Position numbers and translations under genes: made by a program. From NCBI GenBank assembly GCA_027460535.1, contig JAPZAR010000016.1, positions 1 to 16,674 on the forward strand: a stretch of DNA of 16,674 nt. The letters are read 5' to 3'. This stretch comes from Candidatus Methanoperedens sp. Lineage in GTDB: Archaea > Halobacteriota > Methanosarcinia > Methanosarcinales > Methanoperedenaceae. Shown in pieces: positions 2,214 to 16,239 of the stretch. Below the pieces are notes generated by a model that worked only from the letters and a program-made list of their open reading frames with translations, searched no databases and was not told the origin of the DNA. Position 1 is the first letter of the stretch. Each line of letters starts with the position of its first letter.

Positions 2214-2489
2214 TCATCCATACTTATAAAACACCCCATACCCCCCTCTTGGATAATTGAAATCTACCACGCCTTTTGGACAGGCGAACTTGCAGCTTCC
2301 GCACTCGATACATCCCTCATAATCATGTTTTATCTTTCCGTCTTCAAGGGTAAACCTGTTCGCAGGACAGAAATAAAGGCATGTTTTTTCATCGCACTCG
2401 CCACATAAACTGGTATCTACTTTGATATGCCGTTCCTTGTCAACCTCAAAGCTAACAAGCCCGAGCCGCTCTTCAATACTAATATTCAT
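2214..2489 (-). CDS. fixX: FixX-type ferredoxin-like protein
   Basis: 91 aa with Cys clusters CGECDEKTCLYFCP and CIECGSCKFACP, and the characteristic C-terminus YPRGGYGVFYKYG. Its start overlaps the fixC stop by 4 nt. Confidence 0.85.
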   Translation of the reverse strand: MNISIEERLGLVSFEVDKERHIKVDTSLCGECDEKTCLYFCPANRFTLEDGKIKHDYEGCIECGSCKFACPKGVVDFNYPRGGYGVFYKYG

Positions 2490-3749
2490 AGCGCTCTCAA
2501 ACCTTTTAATACATCAAGTATCATATTCGTTCTATTACCTTTTGTTCCTTCCAAGAGTTCATCAAATGCTCGTTTCTTTGCTCCGTCCACAGCCCAGAGT
2601 TTATAGAAAAGCTTGCATGCCATCTCTGGATACAATGTGTACAGCCTATCATTCTGCAAAAATTCCGATACTTTTTTAAATGTAGCGATATCTTTGAGGA
2701 CGAAATCCTTTCTCAGCAGGTCTTCATAATATGAAAGGCATTCCTTTGAAAAATCATTTTTTCCCATAGCATTTTTCACTGCTTCAGCAGCAGCTGCTCC
2801 AGAAGCAATGGCCATATCCATTCCCCGCAGCGTAATACCGCTATTTACCACGAGGCCGCCAGCATCCCCAACAACAAGCATTCCATCAGTGAAAAGCCCA
2901 CTTCGCGAGGTCTCAGGGATAACATGTGCAGAATATTCCAGTATTTTACCACCTTCTATCAGTTTTGCGACAACTGGATTCTCGTTGAACTCCCTTATTA
3001 TATCGTGTGAATCTATTTTCTTTTCAATGAGCCGGTCAATATACACCACTATTCCCACAGAAAGGCTTGTTTTGTTGGTGTAAATGAAGCCTCCTCCCGG
3101 TATCTCCTTTGTGCACTGACCAACAAAAAGCTGCGCTGCACCTTCTTCATGTGCAAGATTGAACCTGTCTTCAATGGTTTTCTCTGGCAGTTCTATTATC
3201 TCCTTCATACCTAGCGCGAATTGTTTTACTTCAAATTTCTTTAACCCCGCTTTCTCTGCCATAAGGGATACCGCTCCGTCCGCAGCGATAACCACATTCG
3301 CTTCAATTTCATCCTCACCTGCAATTATGCCTGCGACTTTTTTTTCTCTCCATAGAAGATCATCCACTCTGATGTTCGGCACGAGCGTGGCTCCTGCTTC
3401 CACGGCCTTGTTCGCGAACCATTGATCAAACTTCGCCCTGAGTGGTGAAGCTGTTCGGTGGCTCCCGAAACTCCCCGTCCAGAAAATCCAGGGTAACAGA
3501 GGCCTCATTGCACAGGAATGTGAGTTTTTCTCGAGTAACCATCCTCTCTATGGGAGCTTCTTTCCAGAAGCCAGGTATGAGACGATTTAAAGCATGCGCG
3601 TACATTCTCCCACCCATCACATTCTTGGCTCCAGGGTACTTGCCCCTCTCCACTATCAGCGCGTTAAAACCCATCTTTGCAAGTGAATAGGCGGCTGCAG
3701 AGCCTCCTGGGCCTGCTCCTACGATTATAACGTCGAATTTTTCAGTCAT
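2486..3749 (-). pseudogene. fixC: FixC-type electron-transfer-flavoprotein:quinone oxidoreductase flavoprotein, interrupted by a +1 frame change near 3443
   Basis: The N-terminal ORF 3426..3749 (MTEKFDVIIVGAGPGGSAAAY, FAD GxGxxG) ends at ...PPNSFTTQGEV*. The continuation LRAKFDQWFANKAVEAGA... is in ORF 2486..3508. Junction on the minus strand: agc ttc acc a|ctc agg gcg. E. coli FixC has SYSVLRSKFDAW at this point. Confidence 0.8.
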
Positions 3750-3759
3750 ATCCTGAAAA

Positions 3760-4536
3760 TCATATACCTTTAAACACGGGCTTTCTTTTCTCCAGAAAAG
3801 CGTTTATGCCTTCACGATGATCTTGGGTATTAAAACACTCTGAAAAGGAAACTGCTTCTCTCTCAAGCATTTCTTTAATCATCTGATTTTCATTGATCAG
3901 TTTTTTTGCCAGCTTAACAGCTACCGGCCCTCTGTGGGCAATGATATCTGCCATCTCCAGAGCCTTCTCCATCAGTTCTTCATCCTTTACTACTTTATTC
4001 ACAATGCCGATAGCTTCTGCCTCTGTTGCATCCATAATTTTCCCTGTCAGGATCATTTCTTTGGCTTTTCCTATACCCACCAGTCTGGTGAGTCGCTGTG
4101 TTCCCCCAAATCCCGGGATGAGGGCAAGATTTACTTCGGGCTGACCGAATTTCGCATTCTCGCCTGCTATCCTTATATCGCAGGCAAGAGCTAATTCACA
4201 TCCACCGCCAAAAGCATAGCCGCTGATCGCTGCAATAACCGGCTTCTCCAGATTCTCCAATTGATTGAACAACCTGTTTCCAAAATCAGAAAAAGCCTTC
4301 GCCTCTTTTGCAGTAAACTCTTTCATCTTCTTAACGTTCGCGCCTGCGCTGAAATTTTTATCTCCGGTTATAATTAAAACCCGTATCTTTTCGTCCTTCC
4401 CAAGTTCATTAAGAAGATCCTCAAGGTCATGCAGCATTGTTGAATCAAGGATGTTAAGACCATCAGATTTTTTCAGCGTAATAATGCCCACTTCATTTTT
4501 CTTTTCCACGTATATGTGTTCATTTCTGGTATTCAT
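3760..4536 (-). CDS. Enoyl-CoA hydratase (crotonase family)
   Basis: Both catalytic Glu contexts are present ([11 protein letters not shown] and [20 protein letters not shown]), and the ORF is full length. I prefer the internal ATG at 4536 ([13 protein letters not shown]...). The ORF-track start at 4572 lies inside the restored 3' end of hbd. Confidence 0.85.
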
Positions 4537-5285
4537 AGAATCCTTCTCCGGTTTTTCTCCCAAGCTTTCCACCCGCGACCATTTTTCGAAGCAGTGGACA
4601 TGGCCTGTACTTCACCTAAATCGCCATGAAGAACCTCAAGTTTATCAAGACAGATATCCAGACCCACCAGGTCTGCAAGTTCAAGAGGCCCCATCGGATG
4701 GTTAGCCCCAAGTTTCATGATACTGTCAATACTCTCCCGTGATGCAATCCCTTCATGAAGGCAATATAAGGCATCGTTTATCATTGGCATTAGTACACGG
4801 TTTGAAACAAACCCCGGCGAATCATAACCACTTCTACGAGCTTCATCACGTACGCCGGGTTCATGAAATGCATACCGGCGAACTTCTCTTTTCTCTCTGT
4901 AACCTGAGCAAGCCGTGTGATCGATATGGAAGAGGTATTTGTAGTGAAAATAGTTCCTTTTGCGCATATGGTATCCAATTCTTTGAAAATCTGCTTTTTT
5001 ACATCCTCTTTTTCTACAACAGCCTCGATTAAGGTCAGCATCTTTACAATCTTCCAGGTTTGCAATAGTCTTAATATTCGAAATGATCCTATCCTTCTCG
5101 ATGCGTTCAAGCTTCCCTTCGACAACCCTCTTTTCCAGTCTTTCTTTTATTCTGGCGAATCCCGCGCTCACGTATTCCTCGCTCACGTCTTCCATAACGA
5201 CTTCATAGCCGCTCTGCCCAGCTGCCTGGGCTATTCCGCCTCCCATGGTCCCGGCACCTATTACACCTATTTTTTTAATTTCCAT
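4520..5285 (-). pseudogene. hbd: 3-hydroxyacyl-CoA dehydrogenase carrying three lesions (two +1 frame changes and an internal deletion of roughly 80 nt)
   Basis: The N-terminus MEIKKIGVIGAGTMGGGIAQ...DCKDADL is in ORF 4533..5285. The middle IEAVVEKEDVKKQIFKELD...FAGMHFMNPAYVMKLVEVV is in ORF 4790..5125. DSPGFVSNRVLMPMINDA...MKLGANHPMGPLELADLVGLD returns to the first frame. The C-terminus [29 protein letters not shown] (hand translation) is in another frame and ends at 4520. Confidence 0.8.
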
Positions 5286-5292
5286 GAGTACC

Positions 5293-6464
5293 TCATTTTA
5301 ATGATAAATGGGCAATTAAAAGCCTTAAAATATCAGAAGTCCCCTCACCGATAGTTAGCAATCTTGCATCTCTCCAGTGTCGGTGTATATCATATTCGTC
5401 CGTATACCCATAACCCCCATGGATATGTATCGCCTTATCGCATACTTTCAATGCCATCTCTGTAGAAAAGAGCTTGGCCTGCGTAACTTCAGAAACAATA
5501 TTTTTTCCTTTATCTTTTAAGTGGGCTGCATAATAGGTGAGAAGCCTTGCAGCATTTATCTCGGTTATCATATCAGCCAGTTTCTCCTGTACGAGTTGGT
5601 ACTCTGAAATGTCATTTCCAAAGGCTGATCTGTCCTTGCTGTATGAAAGAGCTTTTTTTCATAAGCTGCCTGCGCTATCCAAATAGCGATTACAGCGATT
5701 GTAATCCTCCCTGAATTCAGGATATGTTTTACATATTCAAGTCCTTTTCCCTCTTCTCCAAGAAGATCTTCTTTTGGAACTGTGCAGTTGTCAAGATGTA
5801 CCTCGGACAACCTGTGACCCCGAAACCCGAGTTTCGGAATAACTTTCGCCACATTAAAACCTGAGGTTTTCCGCGAAACAAGGAACGATGAGATCCCTTT
5901 TTCAGTTCTTGCAAATAGTAAAATAAAATCTGCTTCTCCCGGACTTGTTATTAATGTCTTAGTGCCGTTTAAGATATAATTATTTCCCGAAAGTTGAGCT
6001 CTTGTCTGGATTGAATTTGCATCCGAACCGCAGCAGGGCTCAGTGAGTGCGAAAGCTGCCAGATTTCTCCCCTCAGCCAGACCGTTTTCTTTAAGGAATT
6101 TTTTTTTCTGTTTATCATCCCCAAAAAGCCTTATGCCTTCACACACCATTCCCTGTATAGAAACCTGCAGGGCTGTATTTGCACAGGCTTTCGCCAACAT
6201 TTCCAGCGCTGCGATGTATACAGGATATGGGAGTCCTAAACCATTGTAATCCTGAGGAAAAGGAATAGCCATGATTCCCTGTCTAGCTACTTTTTCTAAA
6301 TTCTGTCTAGGGAATATTTCTTCCTGATCTATCTTTTTTGCAGATGGCATTATTTCCCTCTCCACGAAATCACCTATAGATCCAAGTATCAAATTATATT
6401 CCCCGGCATCAGCAAAGAGCATCTCCATTACGTTTTTCATATCTTTTATATAATACATTTTCAC
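5293..6464 (-). pseudogene. Acyl-CoA dehydrogenase (short/medium-chain type) split by a frame change in an A7 homopolymer
   Basis: ORF 5568..6464 carries the N-terminal and middle domains (ALTEPCCGSDA, GRITIAVIAIWIAQAAYEK). After the A7 run (plus T7 at 5653-5659), the frame of ORF 5293..5571 reads KALSYSKDRSAFGNDISEYQLVQEKLADMITEINAARLL...IHGGYGY...TIGEGTSDILR. The likely true start is ATG at 6458, preceded by GGAGAGGTGA. This could be a homopolymer sequencing error. Confidence 0.75.
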
Positions 6465-7964: not shown

Positions 7965-9557
7965 ATGAATCAAATTGTGGGAGCATTAAAGATGATAAGC
8001 CAGATCGATGAACTAAAAAAGCTTTTAGAGCCGAAAATTTCAGAACTTGGACTGGACGAAGGGACAATCGAAGAAATCCTTTCAAAAGCCATGGATTTTT
8101 CAGAAAAAGAGCTTAAGCCGCACTCCATGAAGTGGGATGAAAATGGGACTCACTTTGAGAAAGTATACAAAATAAGAATAAGATCTAAAAATGAGAATGT
8201 TGAATTAGGGGAAAATGAGTACAATATACTGGATAAATATGGATGCATAGAAGAAGCGGTATTAACACGCAGAAGATTATTATTTCCTGAATATTTTGAA
8301 GAGGTACAAAAAAGGCTTGGCAAAACAGGATTGCTGGGGCTATATATACCGAAAGAGTATGGCGGTCTGGGGTTACCTTACACACTTTACAGTTGTGTAA
8401 TAGAGATATTATCAGGAGGTGATGCCAATTTTGGGGTTCATGCTTCCATACACGGTACTGCGGCTGATTTAATCAATAGGTTTGGCACGGAAGCTTTGAA
8501 AAACAGATTGCTGCCTGACATGGCATCCGGCAAAAAACTCGGCTGTCTCGTTTTCACAGAGGGTTCTGGCGGATCTGACCTGAAAGCAGTATCTACTGCT
8601 TCTGAACTCGCTGGAGATGGTTACATTATAAATGGAAATAAGTTTTCCATTACTAGCGGTGCATACGCAGATGTTCATGTGGTGTTCACAGTCGACAAAG
8701 AAGATTACCATCTGCCATTTGCGGACAGAAAGAAATACAATGCGCTTGTGGTTGAAAAAGGAACAGAAGGTTTAGAATTACTGGGTATTGGAAATACAAT
8801 GGGCTGGCGAGCATCGCCTACTTCGATGTTGAAATTTGAAAATTGCAAAGTATCTGTTGAGAATCTGCTGGGTGAAAGGGGAAGCGGAAGAAAAGTCCTT
8901 TCTGCAGGGTTATCCGGGGGTAGAATAAGCTTCGGCTGTGCATGGTCGCTCGGGATTGCTGACGCAGCTTACAGGAAAGCAATGGAACGTTCAGAGAAAA
9001 GAATATTGTTCGGCAAACCGCTAAAAGATCACCGGGAAATCAGGAAACATCTCGCAGATATGTACAGATACCTCTGCATGGGAAGACAGAAATACATACA
9101 TGCTGCGTATCTTAAAGATAAAAACGACCCGGATTTTCCATTCGAAGCTACGATTTCAAAAATCTTTTGCTCCGAAAGGGCAGAGGATATCGTAAGGATC
9201 GTCTACCAGATGCACGGTCATTTTGGGTACATCAATGAAAGCGGTGTACCGCTGCTCTTCAGGAACGTAATGGTAGCCACAGTAGGTGAAGGTGGAACAG
9301 AGGTTTTAAGGGACAGGGTAGTAGCGCCAGGTGTGATAAACGGCGATTATGCGTTCACTGGTGAAATTGAATATGATAGAAGTTATGTTGACAGAAACCT
9401 CGGGGATGAGATATTCAGGGAACTGGCACAACGATTGGGTGATGATGTGTATCCCTGTTATGAAATTCTTGTGAGCAGGGCTACAGGTAGAAAAATAAGA
9501 ATGCCTGCAACAGAAGTAAAAAATCTGACGATTAACTGGAAACTCTACGGATTATGA
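7965..9557 (+). CDS. Long acyl-CoA dehydrogenase family protein (530 aa) with an N-terminal in-frame insertion and a C-terminal extension
   Basis: ACAD motifs are present: LYIPKEYGGLGLP, FTEGSGGSDLKA, INGNKFSITSG, GGRISFGCAWSLGIADAAY, HGHFGY and VGEGGTEVLR (catalytic Glu context). About 80 extra residues follow the ACAD C-terminal domain. An alternative start is ATG at 7992. Confidence 0.85.
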   Translation: MNQIVGALKMISQIDELKKLLEPKISELGLDEGTIEEILSKAMDFSEKELKPHSMKWDENGTHFEKVYKIRIRSKNENVELGENEYNILDKYGCIEEAVLTRRRLLFPEYFEEVQKRLGKTGLLGLYIPKEYGGLGLPYTLYSCVIEILSGGDANFGVHASIHGTAADLINRFGTEALKNRLLPDMASGKKLGCLVFTEGSGGSDLKAVSTASELAGDGYIINGNKFSITSGAYADVHVVFTVDKEDYHLPFADRKKYNALVVEKGTEGLELLGIGNTMGWRASPTSMLKFENCKVSVENLLGERGSGRKVLSAGLSGGRISFGCAWSLGIADAAYRKAMERSEKRILFGKPLKDHREIRKHLADMYRYLCMGRQKYIHAAYLKDKNDPDFPFEATISKIFCSERAEDIVRIVYQMHGHFGYINESGVPLLFRNVMVATVGEGGTEVLRDRVVAPGVINGDYAFTGEIEYDRSYVDRNLGDEIFRELAQRLGDDVYPCYEILVSRATGRKIRMPATEVKNLTINWKLYGL

Positions 9558-10439
9558 AAGAATTTCTGCTTTTTCCACTTTGCCTTCCATCTCTCCTTTG
9601 GCATTAGTTATTTTATTAATGATCCCTATCGAAAAAGAGATCTCATGATAGAAATATGTATACCAGCCGTTTTCAGAAGCCTTATCATATAGCAATTTCT
9701 TCTTTGTCTCCCAGCAATCTTCCCTGCCTAAAACGTCAACAGCCATCCTGCACCTTGGCTTTTCCTGGTGCATCACCAGTGCAGCCATATCCGCTGCGTA
9801 GAGCATTGTTCTTTCAGCCTTTATTATCACTGACTGATGACCTGCGGTGTGCCCGGGCGTCGGAAGGACAAAAATGCCTGGCAATACTTCTTTTTCTCCA
9901 TCTACAAGTTCCAAGCTCCCCGATTCTTCCAGCGGCAGGACGTCTTTTTCCACGCTGAAATAGTCGTTCTTCAACTCAAAGCCGGGATCTGTTGCAGTCT
10001 TCCACTCTTTTTTTTGTATAACATATTTTGCATTCTCAAAAGTTGGCTTCAATTTTCCATCAATATATCTGGTATTCCAGCCAGCATGATCAGGATTGAG
10101 ATGGCTGTTTATCACAATATCAACATCAAATGGTTTAACTCCAGCAATATTCATGCTTTCTATCAACGATGGATTCTTAACAATGTTATGATGTTTTACA
10201 TAATTTGGAGTCTTATCATGGAGACCTGTCTCCACCAATACATTACCCCCGGGGTGCTTGATCAAAAGACAGTTGGCAGCCTGCAAAATATTGTTATACT
10301 CATCGGTTTTGTAAGGTTTCTTGCCATCGATATTATAATTGGTCCAGATATCCTTTGGAAAGTATCCAAAAATAACCCCACCATCTTCAGTATGTATGCC
10401 GTCGCTTAAGATTTGAAGTTCCATATCCCCGAATTTCAT
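9552..10439 (-). CDS. MBL-fold metallo-hydrolase (lactonase-like) with variant motif HLNPDH
   Basis: 295 aa containing VINSHLNPDHAGWN (motif II position), TPGHTAGHQS, AADMA and a late His (YFYHE). Its ATG overlaps the DUF35 stop (ATGA at 10436-10439). Confidence 0.8.
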   Translation of the reverse strand: MKFGDMELQILSDGIHTEDGGVIFGYFPKDIWTNYNIDGKKPYKTDEYNNILQAANCLLIKHPGGNVLVETGLHDKTPNYVKHHNIVKNPSLIESMNIAGVKPFDVDIVINSHLNPDHAGWNTRYIDGKLKPTFENAKYVIQKKEWKTATDPGFELKNDYFSVEKDVLPLEESGSLELVDGEKEVLPGIFVLPTPGHTAGHQSVIIKAERTMLYAADMAALVMHQEKPRCRMAVDVLGREDCWETKKKLLYDKASENGWYTYFYHEISFSIGIINKITNAKGEMEGKVEKAEILS

Positions 10440-11056
10440 GAAAATTCCTCCACAGGAACAAAATAGACATCTCTCACATCAAAATGCGGATTTCGCCTGA
10501 ATTTCGGTTTTACTCTGCTCCCATTTTTTATTTTATGATAAACCTCCCAGATGTTTCGATTGTATTCTTCATCATTTATCAGATCTATTCCAGACCTCTC
10601 TTTATCTCTTTTCATTCTCTTCAGCCAAAGAATTTCTTTAGGCATGTATTCAGCCATCAGGTAGCTATCCACACCTTCAAATTCTACCAGGATTAAAGAA
10701 AATGGTGCCTTTTTCAAGAATACCCCTCCGCCGTACTTGCTTACGCTGTGGCAGTGTATTTTCCCTTCCTCTGGTAAATCAAACCATTCGGTCCTGCTCC
10801 CGCAATCGCTGCAATATACATGCGGACTTGCATATCTGTTACCACAACCCATACACATAGAACCGATAAGCTTCCCTTCTGCAAGAGCCATGAAATAAGG
10901 CGTATCCTGCGCAATACTTTCAATATAATCTATGGATTCATGTATTTTCTTAACTATAATTTCTTTTTCCCCGCCTGTATAGATGGCCACACCGCTGCCT
11001 TTCAGCACTTCCTTCATCACGTCCCTGTATTTAGCGAACTTTTTCACTTCTCTCAT
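10436..11056 (-). CDS. DUF35 family Zn-ribbon/OB-fold protein, extended form (about 206 aa)
   Basis: Zn ribbon CMGCGNRYASPHVYCSDCGS preceded by PYFMALAEGKLIGSMC, followed by an OB-fold-like WFDLPEEGKIHCHSVS...PFSLILVEFEGV. I prefer the ATG at 11056 (MREVKK). The track start at 11077 is TTG. The ATG lies 1 nt after the upstream TAG stop. Confidence 0.8.
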   Translation of the reverse strand: MREVKKFAKYRDVMKEVLKGSGVAIYTGGEKEIIVKKIHESIDYIESIAQDTPYFMALAEGKLIGSMCMGCGNRYASPHVYCSDCGSRTEWFDLPEEGKIHCHSVSKYGGGVFLKKAPFSLILVEFEGVDSYLMAEYMPKEILWLKRMKRDKERSGIDLINDEEYNRNIWEVYHKIKNGSRVKPKFRRNPHFDVRDVYFVPVEEFS

Positions 11057-11057
11057 T

Positions 11058-12392
11058 CTACCATGCCTTCTCGGCAAGAGTTAATGTAATATAAGTGCCT
11101 GTGCCAGCATGACTGTGGAATCCACCTCGTTTTGCATTCCTTACTTGCAGAGTATCATCCCCGAATTTCTCAGAAATTTTATTCTGCAACTGCCAGAGAG
11201 AAAATACGGCTTGCATTATTCCTGTAGCTCCTATAGGATGACCGCATGCGAGAAGTCCTCCTGAGGGGTTCACTGGAAGCTCTCCCTTTTCAGGCAGCTC
11301 CAATCCATAATCAATGTCCGGCATGAAAGTATAACCTTTATCGATGAATTCTCTGGAATAGCCGCATGGGCACAATCCAAGGTCTTCATATGTCTGTGCT
11401 TCTGACATTGTGTATGCATCATGTATTTCCAGGAAATCCAGCTCTTCCAGAGGATCTGTTATCCCTGCCTGCATGTAAGCTTTTTTTGCAGCCACCCTGC
11501 CAGCATTGAATGAGTGGACATCAGGATATAATAATTTGTCATAATATTCAACTAGCTCTTCATTTGCCGATTCGTGAGAAAACGTGGGTACTTTTCTTTT
11601 CGGTCGGTCTTCCATGGCCATATTGTCCGTCCCAGCCCCCATTCCTATGATCTTTACAGGTCTATCTGTCAGCCTGGACGCGATATCACTGGATGCAAGA
11701 ATTAATACAGCAGCACCGTCGCTCATGGTGCAGATATCGAGAGCTGTAAATGGCGTTGCTATCGGCTCTGAGTTGAGAACATCTTCCATCTTTAATTTCT
11801 TCGGGTATTGCGCGTAAGGATTGTAGAGCGCATTTGTGTGGTTCTTGATTGAAATTTTAGCCAGCTGCTCTCTCGAGGTTCCGAACTCGCTCATATGCTT
11901 ATCTGCCATAAGGGCATAGAACATGCTATAAAAACCGCCCAGGTCGCAATTCCTTCTCTGGTCAGAAGCCTTGGCAATAAAATAATTACCCATCCATGTT
12001 GGAACCCGTGACATGGTTTCAAAGCCGTAACAGACGCAGAGTTCAAGATCGCCAGAAGCAATGGCTCTTATTCCCTCCTGAATGCAAAGACCTCCAGTTG
12101 CACCGCCTCCTTCCACTCTGACTCCTGGGGCAGGGCAGAGACCTATATATTCATGTGCCATTATCCCTGCCATCAACTGCCTTGAGAAATGATCGGAAAA
12201 GTAAGAACCCACGCCTCCCAGTTCGTGTGTTTCCGAGAGTTTTTCTTTGAGATATATGAATTCAGGCACATCTTTTACTGCATTATCAAATGCTTCCTTT
12301 ACCATTATTTGAAATGTCCTGTCTGGATGTGCTTTTGCGAACTTCGTTACACCGCCAGCAACCATATAGACATCTCTGGAAAGTTTCCCCAT
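11058..12392 (-). CDS. SCP-x/archaeal-type thiolase-fold protein, apparently lacking the nucleophilic cysteine
   Basis: 444 aa with RVEGGGATGGLCIQEGIRAIASG where thiolases have RVE-x-A-C-A-S-G-G...ASG. It retains LEIHDAYTMSE, NPSGGLLACGHPIGATG and HSHAGTGT. It is adjacent and translationally coupled to DUF35, the usual partner of this thiolase class. Confidence 0.8.
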   Translation of the reverse strand: MGKLSRDVYMVAGGVTKFAKAHPDRTFQIMVKEAFDNAVKDVPEFIYLKEKLSETHELGGVGSYFSDHFSRQLMAGIMAHEYIGLCPAPGVRVEGGGATGGLCIQEGIRAIASGDLELCVCYGFETMSRVPTWMGNYFIAKASDQRRNCDLGGFYSMFYALMADKHMSEFGTSREQLAKISIKNHTNALYNPYAQYPKKLKMEDVLNSEPIATPFTALDICTMSDGAAVLILASSDIASRLTDRPVKIIGMGAGTDNMAMEDRPKRKVPTFSHESANEELVEYYDKLLYPDVHSFNAGRVAAKKAYMQAGITDPLEELDFLEIHDAYTMSEAQTYEDLGLCPCGYSREFIDKGYTFMPDIDYGLELPEKGELPVNPSGGLLACGHPIGATGIMQAVFSLWQLQNKISEKFGDDTLQVRNAKRGGFHSHAGTGTYITLTLAEKAW

Positions 12393-12414
12393 AGTACTTA
12401 GTATGTAAATGAAA

Positions 12415-12423
12415 TTTTAAATA
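12415..12423 (-). promoter_or_regulatory. TATA-like box TATTTAAAA ending 22 nt upstream of the ATG of the thiolase-fold gene (suggests a leaderless or near-leaderless archaeal-type transcript)
   Basis: The minus strand reads aagTATTTAAAAtttcatttacatactaagtactATG. No Shine-Dalgarno-like purine run is present before this ATG, unlike the internal genes of the operons. Confidence 0.35.
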
Positions 12424-12595
12424 CTTTGTTTCTGGAATTCTCTAAAGGTGGTTACCGATCAAAAGTATACGACCAAGATAAAGTGTAAAAATAGGGAAGT
12501 TGTTAACGATATGAATCAATCACAAGCTTTGCGTAATATCCTCACTTCGCTTGATGGAAAAGACTATAACGACCAATAAGAATATAACATTCAGG

Positions 12596-12889
12596 TTAAG
12601 AAAAATAACCGAACGGGTGAGAGCATGAAGTGTAAAGTTCAGCTTTCAATCTGTCTGTCATCGTGAGAACATCTTTCATTTCAGTCGTTATTTTCCCTTC
12701 CGCCAGAGAAGATAATAATCCAAGCGGCGGCATTGCATATTCTTCTTCTTTTATAAAATGTGGATGTAAGATCTTCGCAACGGCTTTTGCAGAATCTCCA
12801 ATCTTTCCGCCGACCTGGGTTGCCTTTGAGAGTTCGCCATGAAGCTCTTCATGCTCTAATTTCAATGATCTCGGTATAATGAATTCCAT
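12596..12889 (-). pseudogene. Hemerythrin (HHE cation-binding) domain protein, C-terminally truncated
   Basis: SLKLEHEELHGEL and HPHFIKEEEYAMPPLG supply only the first two metal-binding helices. After MTDRLKAEL the ORF ends in a non-homologous tail YTSCSHPFGYFS. None of the three frames downstream (12393-12595) encodes the expected third and fourth helices. Confidence 0.6.
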
Positions 12890-12908
12890 TTTCCAACCTC
12901 ATGATATT

Positions 12909-13280
12909 TCACTTAGCGTTTTTATCTTCCTGCCAGGGTCCGAATAAATTATTTTCGGTATCAACACACATCGCAAGATAACCCCAGCCGGGCACAGCTG
13001 TTTTGGGCGTGATGATATTACCACCCAGCTTCTTTACCTTTGTGATGTATTCTTCAATAGAGGATACACCGATGTAATTCATAATATTCTGTGCAGGCAA
13101 TCTTCTTTGTCCCATCCCGCCGCCTACCCCAGGGTTCCCATTCAAATCTTTTGTCTCGATAAGGTAGAAGGGTGTCGGCATCGGCGCCTGATTGAATTTC
13201 CAATCAAACAGCTTTTCGTAGAATTTCTTCCCTCGCTCCATATCATTTACAAGCAGGTCAAAATGAACGATTGTTGCCAT
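12909..13280 (-). CDS. VOC (glyoxalase/bleomycin-resistance/dioxygenase fold) family protein
   Basis: 123 aa. The pattern HFDLLVNDMERGKKFYEKLFDWKF...GGMG...YIGVSSIEEYITKVKKLGGNIITPKTAVPGWGYLAMCVDTENNLFG is typical of small single-domain VOC proteins. Confidence 0.8.
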   Translation of the reverse strand: MATIVHFDLLVNDMERGKKFYEKLFDWKFNQAPMPTPFYLIETKDLNGNPGVGGGMGQRRLPAQNIMNYIGVSSIEEYITKVKKLGGNIITPKTAVPGWGYLAMCVDTENNLFGPWQEDKNAK

Positions 13281-15704: not shown

Positions 15705-15989
15705 TTGAAAATTAAAGGAATTATCTGGTATGAAGGAATTATTGAGAAACTCGAAAAAAAACATAATGTTCAGCAATATGAGGTACGGGAAGTTTTGGTC
15801 AATGACCCAAAGTTTCGTTATATTGAAAAAGGCCTGCAACCGAACGAAGATGTATATGCTGCACTTGGAAAGACAAATGCTGGAAGGTATCTTATTATTT
15901 TCTTTATCTACAAATTAAATAAGCATGCACTTATCGTGTCGGCACGAGATATGACACGAGGGGAACGGAAGAAATATGAACAAAAATAA
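15705..15989 (+). CDS. brnT: BrnT-like (DUF497) type II toxin
   Basis: 94 aa. IIWYEGIIEKLEKKHNVQQYEVREV at the N-terminus and LIVSARDMTRGERKKYE at the C-terminus match the BrnT/DUF497 pattern. The TTG start is preceded by GAAGGA. The gene overlaps the downstream antitoxin gene by 14 nt. Confidence 0.7.
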   Translation: MKIKGIIWYEGIIEKLEKKHNVQQYEVREVLVNDPKFRYIEKGLQPNEDVYAALGKTNAGRYLIIFFIYKLNKHALIVSARDMTRGERKKYEQK

Positions 15990-16239
15990 AGGCTCCATAT
16001 CCAAAGCAAAAAAGTATGAAGAAATCGGTGAATTCTGGGATACGCATGATCTCGCCGAACACTGGGATGAAACCACATCTGCCAAATTCGAAGTCGATCT
16101 GCAGTCCGAGTTGACATATTATGCGGTTGACAGTCGATTATCGGCAAAGATAGAAGAGTTTGCCAGAAGACGCGGTATATCTCCCGATACGCTTTTAAAT
16201 CTATGGCTGCAGGAAAAATTACAGGAGCAGAATGCCTGA
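15976..16239 (+). CDS. brnA: BrnA-like antitoxin (CopG/RHH-type C-terminus)
   Basis: 87 aa. EEIGEFWDTHDLAEHWDET...FEVDLQSE...VDSRLSAKIEEFARRRGISPDTLLNLWLQEKL is the usual architecture of antitoxins paired with DUF497 toxins. Confidence 0.7.
   Translation: MNKNKGSISKAKKYEEIGEFWDTHDLAEHWDETTSAKFEVDLQSELTYYAVDSRLSAKIEEFARRRGISPDTLLNLWLQEKLQEQNA

Follow-up and report, generated by a model that had tools for sequence, protein, structure and literature searches.

Described partnerships between a thiolase-fold protein and a DUF35 protein include the DUF35-dependent thiolases, represented by the structures 6esq (the archaeal acetoacetyl-CoA thiolase in its complex with HMG-CoA synthase and DUF35), 7yvy (P. 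furiosus), 7pxp (the benzoylsuccinyl-CoA thiolase BbsAB) and 6hsj (SCP2-thiolase type 1), as well as Ltp2 and Sal. The latter two are retro-aldolases in which a Cys-poor thiolase fold is combined with DUF35. They follow an acyl-CoA dehydrogenase (ACAD) and a hydratase in their pathways, and their defining feature is a Tyr in the first position of an xDxF motif (YDHF or YDCY) that serves as the base, with Tyr344 (Ltp2) or Cys304 (Sal) as the acid (PMC12329534). Thiolase-fold enzymes that have abandoned their cysteines are known from few cases, such as Ltp2 and Sal, all of which belong to steroid degradation. Here we describe a Cys-less SCP2/archaeal-type thiolase-fold protein, termed THL*, that is encoded in a 16,674-nt stretch of DNA from Candidatus Methanoperedens sp. 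(hereafter the window). Its gene (11058 to 12392; 444 amino acids) opens an intact three-gene operon on the minus strand (9552 to 12392), and is followed by genes for DUF35L (10436 to 11056; 206 amino acids from its ATG), an extended DUF35 partner with a zinc ribbon and an OB fold, and for a YtnP-like hydrolase of the metallo-β-lactamase (MBL) fold (9552 to 10439; 295 amino acids). These assignments draw on the list of open reading frames (ORFs), on Pfam, NCBIfam and PDB matches and, for THL* and DUF35L, on AlphaFold2 (AF2) models and fold searches.

By its fold, THL* belongs with the DUF35-dependent SCP2/archaeal thiolases, but neither of the two catalytic cysteines remains. It carries the Pfam domains Thiolase_N, Thiolase_C_1 and Thiolase_C, and its best NCBIfam match is NF004982 (PRK06365), a model with the generic, function-less name “thiolase domain-containing protein”. 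The likeness to this model is full length (residues 2 to 441 against model positions 12 to 427 of 430), but the score of 567 bits lies below the equivalog cutoff of 695 bits, as expected of a divergent relative. The DUF35-dependent thiolases are closest to THL* both in sequence (6esq_A, E=2e-45) and in fold, with template modeling scores of ~0.73 to 0.77 when normalized to the query and 0.83 to 0.89 when normalized to the target. In a fold search with the AF2 model (predicted local distance difference test score, pLDDT, 81.6; predicted template modeling score 0.88), the top positions are taken by SCP2-thiolase, archaeal thiolases, BbsB and ST0096, with Sal at rank 25, TbSLP at rank 26 and below, and Ltp2 at rank 43.

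The loss of the nucleophile is apparent in the segment RVEGGGATGGLC (residues 92 to 103; 12084 to 12119, minus strand). Searches with phmmer against the PDB gave gapless alignments of this segment with RVEAACASGSLA in 6esq_A, the thiolase of M. thermolithotrophicus (E=2e-45), with KIEAACASGGAA in the P. furiosus thiolase 7yvy and with NVNNNCSTGSTA in zebrafish SCP2-thiolase (6hsj, 6hrv). In each of these alignments the nucleophilic Cys falls on Gly97 of THL* (12102 to 12104). The AF2 model places a strand at residues 92 to 94 and a helix from residue 99 onward, so that Gly97 occupies the nucleophile elbow, whereas Cys103 lies roughly one turn inside the helix. A second substitution affects the acid/base Cys. 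The tetrapeptide HDAY (residues 324 to 327; 11412 to 11423, minus strand) is the counterpart of HDCF in SCP2-thiolases, and the PDB alignments pair EIHDAY with EVHDCF, such that the His is kept, the Cys is replaced by Ala326 and the Phe is replaced by Tyr. This change, in addition to Gly97, means that both catalytic cysteines have been lost. An earlier note on this DNA had already assigned Gly to the nucleophile position and had listed the His of EIHDAY and the NPSGG...GHPIGATG motifs as kept. All of these features are present, the Gly throughout the family, and HDAY additionally reveals the missing acid/base Cys.

The remainder of the acyl-CoA-binding apparatus is kept, including the SDGA pantetheine loop (S224 to A227), His324, Asn375-Pro-Ser-Gly-Gly and His385 of the GHP motif. 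The GHP/oxyanion-hole loop NPSGGLLACGHPIGATG (residues 375 to 391; 11220 to 11270, minus strand) is retained both within the family and relative to solved thiolases, with N375, P376, S377, G379, H385, P386 and G388 to G391 invariant. THL* thus has the GHP, NPSGG and SDGA loops, together with a zinc ribbon and OB-fold DUF35 partner, in common with the DUF35-dependent thiolases. It differs from them by the replacement of the nucleophilic Cys by Gly, by the replacement of the HDCF Cys by Ala, and by the gain of His68, Tyr155 and His428. The full set of gained, invariant polar residues comprises Asp67-His68, Tyr155, Tyr327 and His428. Asp67-His68 belongs to the motif SDHF (residues 66 to 69; 12186 to 12197, minus strand) in the β2-α2 loop, which is hydrophobic in the aligned true thiolases and, by analogy with the description of the Sal structure, probably lines the active-site cleft. 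His428 is brought in by HSHAGTGTY (residues 426 to 434; 11091 to 11117, minus strand), which replaces the HNxGGxG motif of true DUF35-type thiolases in the alignments.

These features extend well beyond a single genome. More than 6,000 proteins match THL* at E<=1e-10, a count that takes in true thiolases. Among the 120 best homologs, which span 57 to 96% identity, R[VI]E[GS]GGA[TS]GG is found in all 119 that cover the region, and E[LI]HDA[YF] is found in 116. The presence of Gly97 and HDA[YF] across these homologs indicates that the substitutions are not the result of chance or sequencing error. Sequencing error or pseudogene formation was also rejected on the grounds that the identical protein is encoded on eight contigs (NCBI, ENA and Logan), that the orthologs of 86 to 96% identity are all full length, and that the signature is family-wide. 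An alignment of 23 diverse members has a mean column identity of 77%, with a pairwise identity of only ~60%. Its invariant residues (among them G95 to G97, A98, S66-D67-H68-F69, Y155, H324-D325, Y327, N375-P-S, H385 and H426-S-H-A-G-T-G-T-Y) cluster in the classical active-site loops.

To compare this signature with that of true thiolases, 90 complete representatives were drawn from a library clustered at 50% identity. Cys97 is present in 49 of the 90; all 49 have His324 and 39 have Cys326, and hydrophobic residues prevail at positions 68 and 428. Gly97 is present in 22 representatives, of which 10 clusters show D67-H68, Y155, HDA[YF], H385 and HSH in full. In these alignments, therefore, the loss of both cysteines accompanies the gain of two His residues and one Tyr where true thiolases mostly have hydrophobic residues. 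Some divergent Gly97 clusters have lost several of the His residues together: P0131, P0136 and P0147 lack His68, His324 and His385, whereas P0122 lacks His68, His324 and His428. These joint losses hint that His68, His324, His385 and His428 may act as a unit. Judging from the absence of both catalytic cysteines across the family, THL* cannot act as an ordinary β-ketothiolase, as the earlier note had suggested. Database entries name members either “thiolase domain-containing protein” or, wrongly, “acetyl-CoA C-acetyltransferase”.

The best mechanistic analogy to THL* is provided by Ltp2-ChsH2(DUF35) and Sal-Shy(DUF35) (6ok1 and 9myr), which likewise combine a thiolase fold that does not perform thiolysis, a DUF35 partner and an ACAD pathway. 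However, His324 of HDAY is located where Ltp2 and Sal have their catalytic Tyr, and the position of the acid Cys of Sal is occupied by Ala326; the alignment with 6ok1 (Ltp2) spans only residues 95 to 257. Ltp2 is also the more distant protein in sequence (E=1e-15 for 6ok1 versus 2e-45 for 6esq), in keeping with the fold ranks of Ltp2 and Sal given above. Because Ltp2 and Sal are more distant from THL* than are the true DUF35-dependent thiolases, the loss of cysteines in THL* appears to have been independent. The settings differ as well. In the steroid systems the DUF35 domain forms the C-terminus of a MaoC hydratase and the pathway is steroid degradation, whereas here DUF35 is a stand-alone protein and the context is that of C4/C5 acyl-CoAs with a B12-dependent mutase. 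By its sequence, THL* is not a member of the Ltp2/Sal group and is at most a convergent analog. An Ltp2-like aldolase had been put forward in the earlier note. The general idea of non-thiolytic, enolate-type or retro-aldol chemistry still stands as the best guess, and an ACAD is a frequent neighbor (38 of 80 loci, see below), which recalls the ACAD, DUF35-hydratase and Ltp2 logic of steroid side-chain cleavage; membership in the group does not stand, as the catalytic Tyr is absent.

Other proteins with an SCP2-type fold and altered catalytic residues have functions that are weak or not known, namely TbSLP (5ab4-7), S. tokodaii ST0096 (4yzo) and M. smegmatis TLP1. In our alignment the nucleophilic Cys is missing from ST0096 as well (NTSGSGG), and HDCF is replaced by HDMA. 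However, none of the three has the set of GGATGG, SDHF, HDAY and HSHAGTG, and no link to a B12 mutase is known for any of them.

The partner of THL* is recognizable as a DUF35 protein. DUF35L matches the Pfam family zf-ChsH2 (PF12172) only weakly (E=1.3e-4), but bacterial homologs match both PF12172 and PF01796, and DUF35L itself matches the DUF35 subunit 6esq_E (E=3.7e-5) and 3irb. All 21 significant PDB matches (E<=1e-3) to its AF2 model (pLDDT 83.9) are DUF35 proteins, among them 6esq_E, ChsH2, Shy, PhlB, BbsA, Trf and MucB. Alignment to 6esq_E, 3irb and 6htj identifies a C4 zinc ribbon of the form CxxC-x10-CxxC (Cys68, Cys71, Cys82 and Cys85; 10802 to 10855, minus strand). The protein is ~76 residues longer than the 130-residue 6esq_E, close to the excess of about 70 originally noted, and this additional length is made up of an N-terminal extension of ~50 residues and a 31-residue insertion in the OB fold. 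The N-terminal extension is common to the whole family and includes the conserved motif IDYIHSY[AG]QDSPFF. The insertion (residues 136 to 166; 10559 to 10651, minus strand), by contrast, is absent from the 12 bacterial homologs aligned. It is predicted by AF2 to form a helical hairpin (helices 140 to 154 and 163 to 175, pLDDT above 90), and it was rejected as a family feature because it was found only in Methanoperedens.

The DUF35L gene lies directly downstream of the THL* gene (within 1.5 kb) in 68 of 80 species-level loci. In addition, two natural fusions, P0130 (752 amino acids) and P0135 (559 amino acids), join a Cys-less THL*-type domain to a C-terminal DUF35 OB domain. The pairing of a thiolase-fold protein with DUF35 seen at the outset is thus borne out, and adjacency, fusions and the DUF35 fold together support the view that THL* and DUF35L form a two-subunit enzyme. 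This arrangement differs from the archaeal thiolase/HMG-CoA synthase/DUF35 complex both in the N-terminal extension of DUF35L and in the absence of an HMG-CoA synthase (3-hydroxy-3-methylglutaryl-CoA synthase) gene from the operon. No such gene was found in the window by ORF list, Pfam scan or contig comparison, in agreement with the earlier note, or among the conserved neighbors in the 80 loci.

These 80 loci come from GTDB species representatives, and their neighborhoods were counted by tblastn. A gene for the B12-binding small subunit of a split mutase lies within 1.5 kb of THL* in 50 of the 80. Within 5 kb of THL*, the large mutase subunit is encoded in 41 loci, an ACAD of any kind in 38, MeaB in 29 and a CoA-transferase in 16. 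In the 50 loci with the small-subunit gene, which fall within L006 to L084 (for example L008, 8749 to 11700; L055; L082), THL* directly follows it, often with DUF35L and then meaB behind. Two gene orders are typical. The first runs branched-chain 2-oxoacid dehydrogenase (BCKDH) E1/E2, thiolase, HBD, large mutase subunit, (MBL), small mutase subunit, THL*, DUF35L, MeaB, enoyl-CoA hydratase (ECH) and PrpD/B/C. The second runs ETFab/FeS oxidoreductase, large mutase subunit, small mutase subunit, THL*, DUF35L, ACAD, MeaB and CoA-transferase. Genes for BCKDH E1/E2, ETF and PrpBCD were identified among the neighbors. In the Nitrospirota loci L014, L015, L019 and L068, THL*-DUF35L-MeaB is followed by ECH, PrpD, a member of the phosphoenolpyruvate mutase/isocitrate lyase family (PrpB-like), a member of the citrate synthase family (PrpC-like) and an AMP-ligase, which suggests that propionyl-CoA is handled by the same cluster.

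HcmA (4r3u) is the closest match of the large mutase subunit. At the diagnostic positions the subunit has Phe, Ala and Gln, compared with Ile90, Asp117 and Gln208 in HcmA and with Tyr, Ala and Arg in human methylmalonyl-CoA mutase. We take this combination to be that of an isobutyryl-CoA mutase (ICM), the residue identities of which we presume here. Methylmalonyl-CoA mutase and 2-hydroxyisobutyryl-CoA mutase were both rejected as identities of the neighboring enzyme on the same three residues; NCBIfam models did not separate the mutase types. Anaerobes employ split ICM clusters with ATR and MeaB for isobutyrate/butyrate isomerization (PMC5017805). Considered together, the neighborhoods suggest that the family operates in the catabolism of short or branched acyl-CoAs, such as those from branched-chain amino acids. 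Full-text literature searches returned no publication on the THL* family and none linking DUF35 with acyl-CoA mutases. The family has a distinct active-site signature and a strong, previously unreported link to an ICM-type B12 mutase.

The family is very large and mostly bacterial, with thousands of sequences in more than ten bacterial phyla as well as in an archaeal methane oxidizer. Apart from those of Methanoperedens, all relatives above ~57% identity belong to bacteria, namely Nitrospirota, anammox Brocadiales and Scalindua, Methylomirabilota, Deltaproteobacteria, Deferrimicrobia, Geobacteraceae, Chloroflexota, Nitrospinota and Peptococcaceae. The archaeal sequences of a sister clade reach just 42% identity to THL*. 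Because the nearest relatives outside Methanoperedens are bacterial, horizontal transfer is suggested, and the simplest reading of these identities is that THL* would have been acquired from bacteria. Contigs from more remote sister clusters were mostly too short for neighborhood analysis; one archaeal locus was informative. This sister-clade locus (L172, 5966 to 11280; 42% identity, with the same Gly/DHF/HDAY/HSH signature) encodes consecutively an AMP-forming acyl-CoA synthetase, a THL*-like protein, a 246-amino-acid DUF35 protein and an ACAD.

Within Methanoperedens, contigs of GCA_027460495.1 carry an identical THL*, as do those of independent ENA and Logan assemblies. The THL*-DUF35L-MBL trio, with MBL following DUF35L, is kept in two further genomes, L085 and L087. 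In L087 it is accompanied by an ELFV-family amino-acid dehydrogenase, an ADP-forming acyl-CoA synthetase and a thiolase-ACAD-ECH-FixCX-ETF set, and in L085 by an ELFV dehydrogenase, a pyridoxal phosphate (PLP)-dependent decarboxylase and histidine-degradation genes. A PLP-dependent decarboxylase of the Orn/DAP/Arg type in fact occurs near the trio in two Methanoperedens genomes, at 648 to 2150 of the window (500 amino acids) and at 12929 to 14236 of L085 (435 amino acids), where it adjoins the ELFV-family dehydrogenase. In a metagenome-assembled genome with a 96%-identical THL* (L005, 2474 to 4049), an IS1595-family transposase gene (3114 to 4049) lies downstream of DUF35L in the place of MBL, and MBL was not detected on that contig.

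The three genes of the operon are tightly arranged. The sequence TAG-A-ATG joins THL* to DUF35L (11054 to 11060), and the stop codon of DUF35L overlaps the start codon of MBL as ATGA (10436 to 10439), consistent with the translational coupling proposed previously. An alternative TTG start for DUF35L at 11077, from which the mechanical ORF list begins, would give a protein of 213 amino acids. The MBL stop codon (9552 to 9554) abuts that of a convergent ACAD of 530 amino acids (9555 to 9557; gene at 7965 to 9557, plus strand), which contains the Pfam ACAD N, M and C domains and an N-terminal extension of ~110 residues. The convergence itself was correctly noted earlier, but the proposal that this long ACAD is a dedicated partner of the module was rejected, as the gene is not beside the trio in L085 or L087; the protein is a neighbor rather than a conserved member. 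Upstream of THL* is an A/T-rich intergenic region of 203 nt (12393 to 12595), in which a TATA-like element, tatttaaaat (~12414 to 12423, 22 to 31 nt before the THL* ATG), is a possible archaeal promoter of the operon.

Beside the trio, the window contains a canonical β-oxidation operon (2486 to 6464) that is broken by frameshifts. Its ACAD gene is split near 5640 to 5658 (ORFs 5293 to 5571 and 5568 to 6464), its FixC gene is split near 3442 to 3444 (ORFs 3426 to 3749 and 2486 to 3508), and the middle part of HBD (4533 to 5285) is in another frame (4790 to 5125). Both the ACAD and FixC splits are found in two long assemblies, and the ACAD split also in a third. Both genes are unbroken in L087, the corresponding operon of which lacks HBD. 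Despite these frameshifted neighbors, THL*, DUF35L, MBL and the long ACAD are unbroken in the window. Upstream of the operon and on the same strand (12596 to 13280) are a hemerythrin-like ORF (97 amino acids, probably truncated, with a weak Pfam match) and a gene for a VOC/glyoxalase-family protein (123 amino acids), neither of which is kept beside the trio in other Methanoperedens genomes. The window also includes a BrnT toxin/CopG-like BrnA antitoxin pair (15705 to 16239, plus strand) and, at its edge (163 to 567), a 134-amino-acid ORF without a Pfam match that by eye resembles the N-terminal part of an insertion sequence transposase.

The MBL protein matches Pfam Lactamase_B, and its best matches are the NCBIfam YtnP lactonase model and, in the PDB, the S. 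aureus protein 3esh (3esh_A, 6.7e-19); it shares the MBL fold with 3esh and with YtnP-family and AiiA-type lactonases. It scores 127 bits against the YtnP lactonase model, far below the cutoff of 425 bits, and it further differs in having Asn in place of the second His of the HxHxDH metal motif (HLNPDH, residues 113 to 118; 10086 to 10103, minus strand). This variant, in line with the mention of a variant MBL hydrolase in the earlier note, is present in all three Methanoperedens MBL orthologs, whereas four bacterial homologs have the canonical His (HLHxDH); the other ligands, H197, D217 and H265, are invariant in the same alignment. The genomic associations of this MBL subfamily also depart from the quorum-quenching contexts of the lactonases and are instead with MeaB, ACAD and mutase genes. 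An MBL homolog lies within 5 kb of THL* in 16 of the 80 species-level loci, and in Nitrospirota the gene lies between those for the mutase subunits. In the reverse direction, 80 metagenome loci were fetched through MBL homologs, of which only three have a THL*/mutase context. MeaB is immediately upstream of MBL in 17 of them, which indicates that the MBL subfamily is independently tied to a MeaB/ACAD setting. An ACAD-MeaB-MBL unit occurs in 13 (L089, 5842 to 8840, and 12 others, including L091, L095, L108, L134, L142, L143, L148, L149, L152, L153 and L156), and the contigs with this unit have no mutase or THL* within 8 kb. An obligate partnership of MBL with THL* was rejected on these forward and reverse counts. 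As a member of the module, MBL is kept in all three Methanoperedens genomes that carry it, but is occasional elsewhere.

The CoA-binding and oxyanion loops are strongly conserved and polar residues have been gained, both of which favor an enzyme that continues to act on the enolate of a CoA thioester. We consider it likely that THL* has been repurposed as a non-thiolytic enzyme of short or branched acyl-CoA metabolism. The analysis demonstrates the fold, the absence of both cysteines, the kept and gained motifs, the obligate pairing with DUF35 and the gene neighborhoods, whereas catalysis by THL*, its reaction type, its substrate and the role of MBL are what we infer. THL* cannot form an acyl-enzyme, and the mechanism that we favor would proceed non-covalently through a CoA-thioester enolate, with a His/Tyr pair, possibly assisted by a metal, acting as base and acid. 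DUF35L would shape the substrate cleft, by analogy with Ltp2 and Sal. The preferred reaction would be of the retro-aldol (or hydratase-lyase) type and would cleave a short or branched 3-hydroxyacyl-CoA that arises once an ACAD has acted, and MBL would probably hydrolyze a product or by-product, either a thioester or a lactone. In bacteria, the enzyme would work in the setting of an ICM-type B12 mutase, MeaB, ACAD and branched-chain 2-oxoacid dehydrogenase, and in Methanoperedens in that of a Leu/Val/Glu-type dehydrogenase, an ADP-forming acyl-CoA synthetase and β-oxidation genes. We hold this reading as a whole, that of a non-covalent, enolate-type THL*-DUF35L enzyme acting on short or branched acyl-CoAs, with evenly divided confidence. 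The assignment of retro-aldol chemistry specifically, for which Ltp2 and Sal provide the precedent, is tentative.

Several observations weigh against this proposal. The main weakness is that many bacterial loci (BCKDH, ICM, ACAD, ECH, HBD and thiolase) already encode all that is needed to convert valine via isobutyryl-CoA and butyryl-CoA to acetyl-CoA, which leaves no evident gap for an aldolase step by THL*. THL* lacks the catalytic Tyr and Cys that known thiolase-fold aldolases use, having HDAY instead of YDHF or YDCY. Enzymes that handle aldehydes or ketones are not consistently near THL* loci, MBL is absent from ~80% of the bacterial loci, and no mutase gene was found in the window or in the other Methanoperedens loci examined. 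Our literature searches found no assayed member of the THL* family and no paper on it.

These points leave room for other explanations. THL*-DUF35L could be an (alkyl)malonyl-CoA decarboxylase, in which the two kept His residues would stabilize the enolate on loss of CO2, as in ketosynthases whose Cys has become Gln or Gly (KSQ/CLF) and, weakly, in TbSLP. This idea accommodates the retention of His324 and His385 alongside the loss of both cysteines, and the Nitrospirota clusters run into methylcitrate-cycle genes that would use propionyl-CoA. Furthermore, TbSLP, which is among the fold neighbors of THL*, has measurable but very slow malonyl-CoA decarboxylase activity (PMC12329534). However, the adjacent mutase has Gln rather than Arg at its carboxylate-binding position and so should not handle methylmalonyl-CoA or ethylmalonyl-CoA, and no carboxylase gene is consistently nearby in the loci examined. 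Moreover, in KSQ-type decarboxylases the place of the Cys is normally taken by a polar residue (Gln), unlike Gly97. We judge a decarboxylase to be rather unlikely.

We regard as no better a prospect the idea that THL* is a dead pseudo-thiolase, which with DUF35L would form a scaffold or acyl-CoA-binding subunit that organizes or regulates the ICM mutase or β-oxidation enzymes. Such a role has an analogy in the scaffolding function of DUF35 in the archaeal thiolase/HMG-CoA synthase complex. It would fit the loss of both cysteines, the tight placement of the THL* gene between those for the small mutase subunit and MeaB, and the completeness of the surrounding pathway without THL*. On the other hand, the old active-site loops are very strongly kept and the new polar residues are invariant, which would be unusual for a pure scaffold. 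The trio is also intact in Methanoperedens, where there is no adjacent mutase, even beside frameshifted β-oxidation genes.

Improbable, in our view, is a β-ketoacyl-CoA (or enoyl-CoA) hydrolase or hydratase in which Asp67-His68 or a metal activates water, possibly in concert with MBL. The gained Asp-His pair, the several clustered histidines and the co-translated metallo-hydrolase are compatible with this mechanism, but we know of no precedent for it in the thiolase superfamily, direct evidence of a metal site is lacking, and MBL is missing from most loci.

Very little speaks for an ordinary thiolase that uses another Cys, either Cys103 in GGLC, which the earlier note had named as an example of a residue that might occupy the nucleophile position, or Cys383 in ACGHP, although both are conserved among close relatives. 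Cys103 was rejected as a nucleophile since it lies inside the helix, about one turn from the elbow that Gly97 occupies, and since sister clusters with the same signature have Asn, Ala, Gly, Ser or Thr in its place. Cys383 was rejected since it is not kept in sister clusters and since its position is sometimes a Cys in true thiolases as well; the acid/base Cys is also gone. Equally hard to credit is genuine membership in the Ltp2/Sal group of steroid side-chain aldolases with a steroid-like or bulky substrate, for although THL* has a nucleophile-less thiolase fold, a DUF35 partner and an ACAD nearby, it fails the motif test (HDAY, not YDHF or YDCY), it is far from Ltp2 and Sal both by sequence and by fold rank, DUF35L is not fused to a MaoC hydratase, and the neighbors are C4/C5 acyl-CoA enzymes with no steroid genes in the loci examined.

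Returning to the non-covalent enolate enzyme, its boldest form is one in which THL*-DUF35L is the founder of a new class of thiolase-fold C-C lyases with a His/Tyr active site, possibly with a metal, that cleave small branched 3-hydroxyacyl-CoAs for which the usual sequence of oxidation and thiolysis is barred. Although we consider this unlikely, such an enzyme could, for example, convert 3-hydroxyisovaleryl-CoA to acetone and acetyl-CoA, or 3-hydroxyisobutyryl-CoA to formaldehyde and propionyl-CoA. There would then be an ICM-coupled, carboxylase-independent route for the carbon of branched-chain amino acids or isobutyrate in Nitrospirota, anammox bacteria, NC10, Deltaproteobacteria and, by horizontal transfer, Methanoperedens.

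The label “acetyl-CoA C-acetyltransferase” that members of this family bear in many metagenome-based metabolic reconstructions is almost certainly wrong. Even if the outcome were negative and THL* proved to be a conserved pseudo-thiolase that attaches to a B12 mutase, this would add something new to the biology of acyl-CoA mutases. If THL* is catalytic, it would offer a new scaffold for biocatalytic formation or cleavage of C-C bonds on CoA esters. It would also represent an unrecognized reaction by which valine, leucine, isobutyrate or butyrate is broken down, in organisms (Nitrospira, anammox bacteria, Methylomirabilis and Methanoperedens) that drive the nitrogen and methane cycles.

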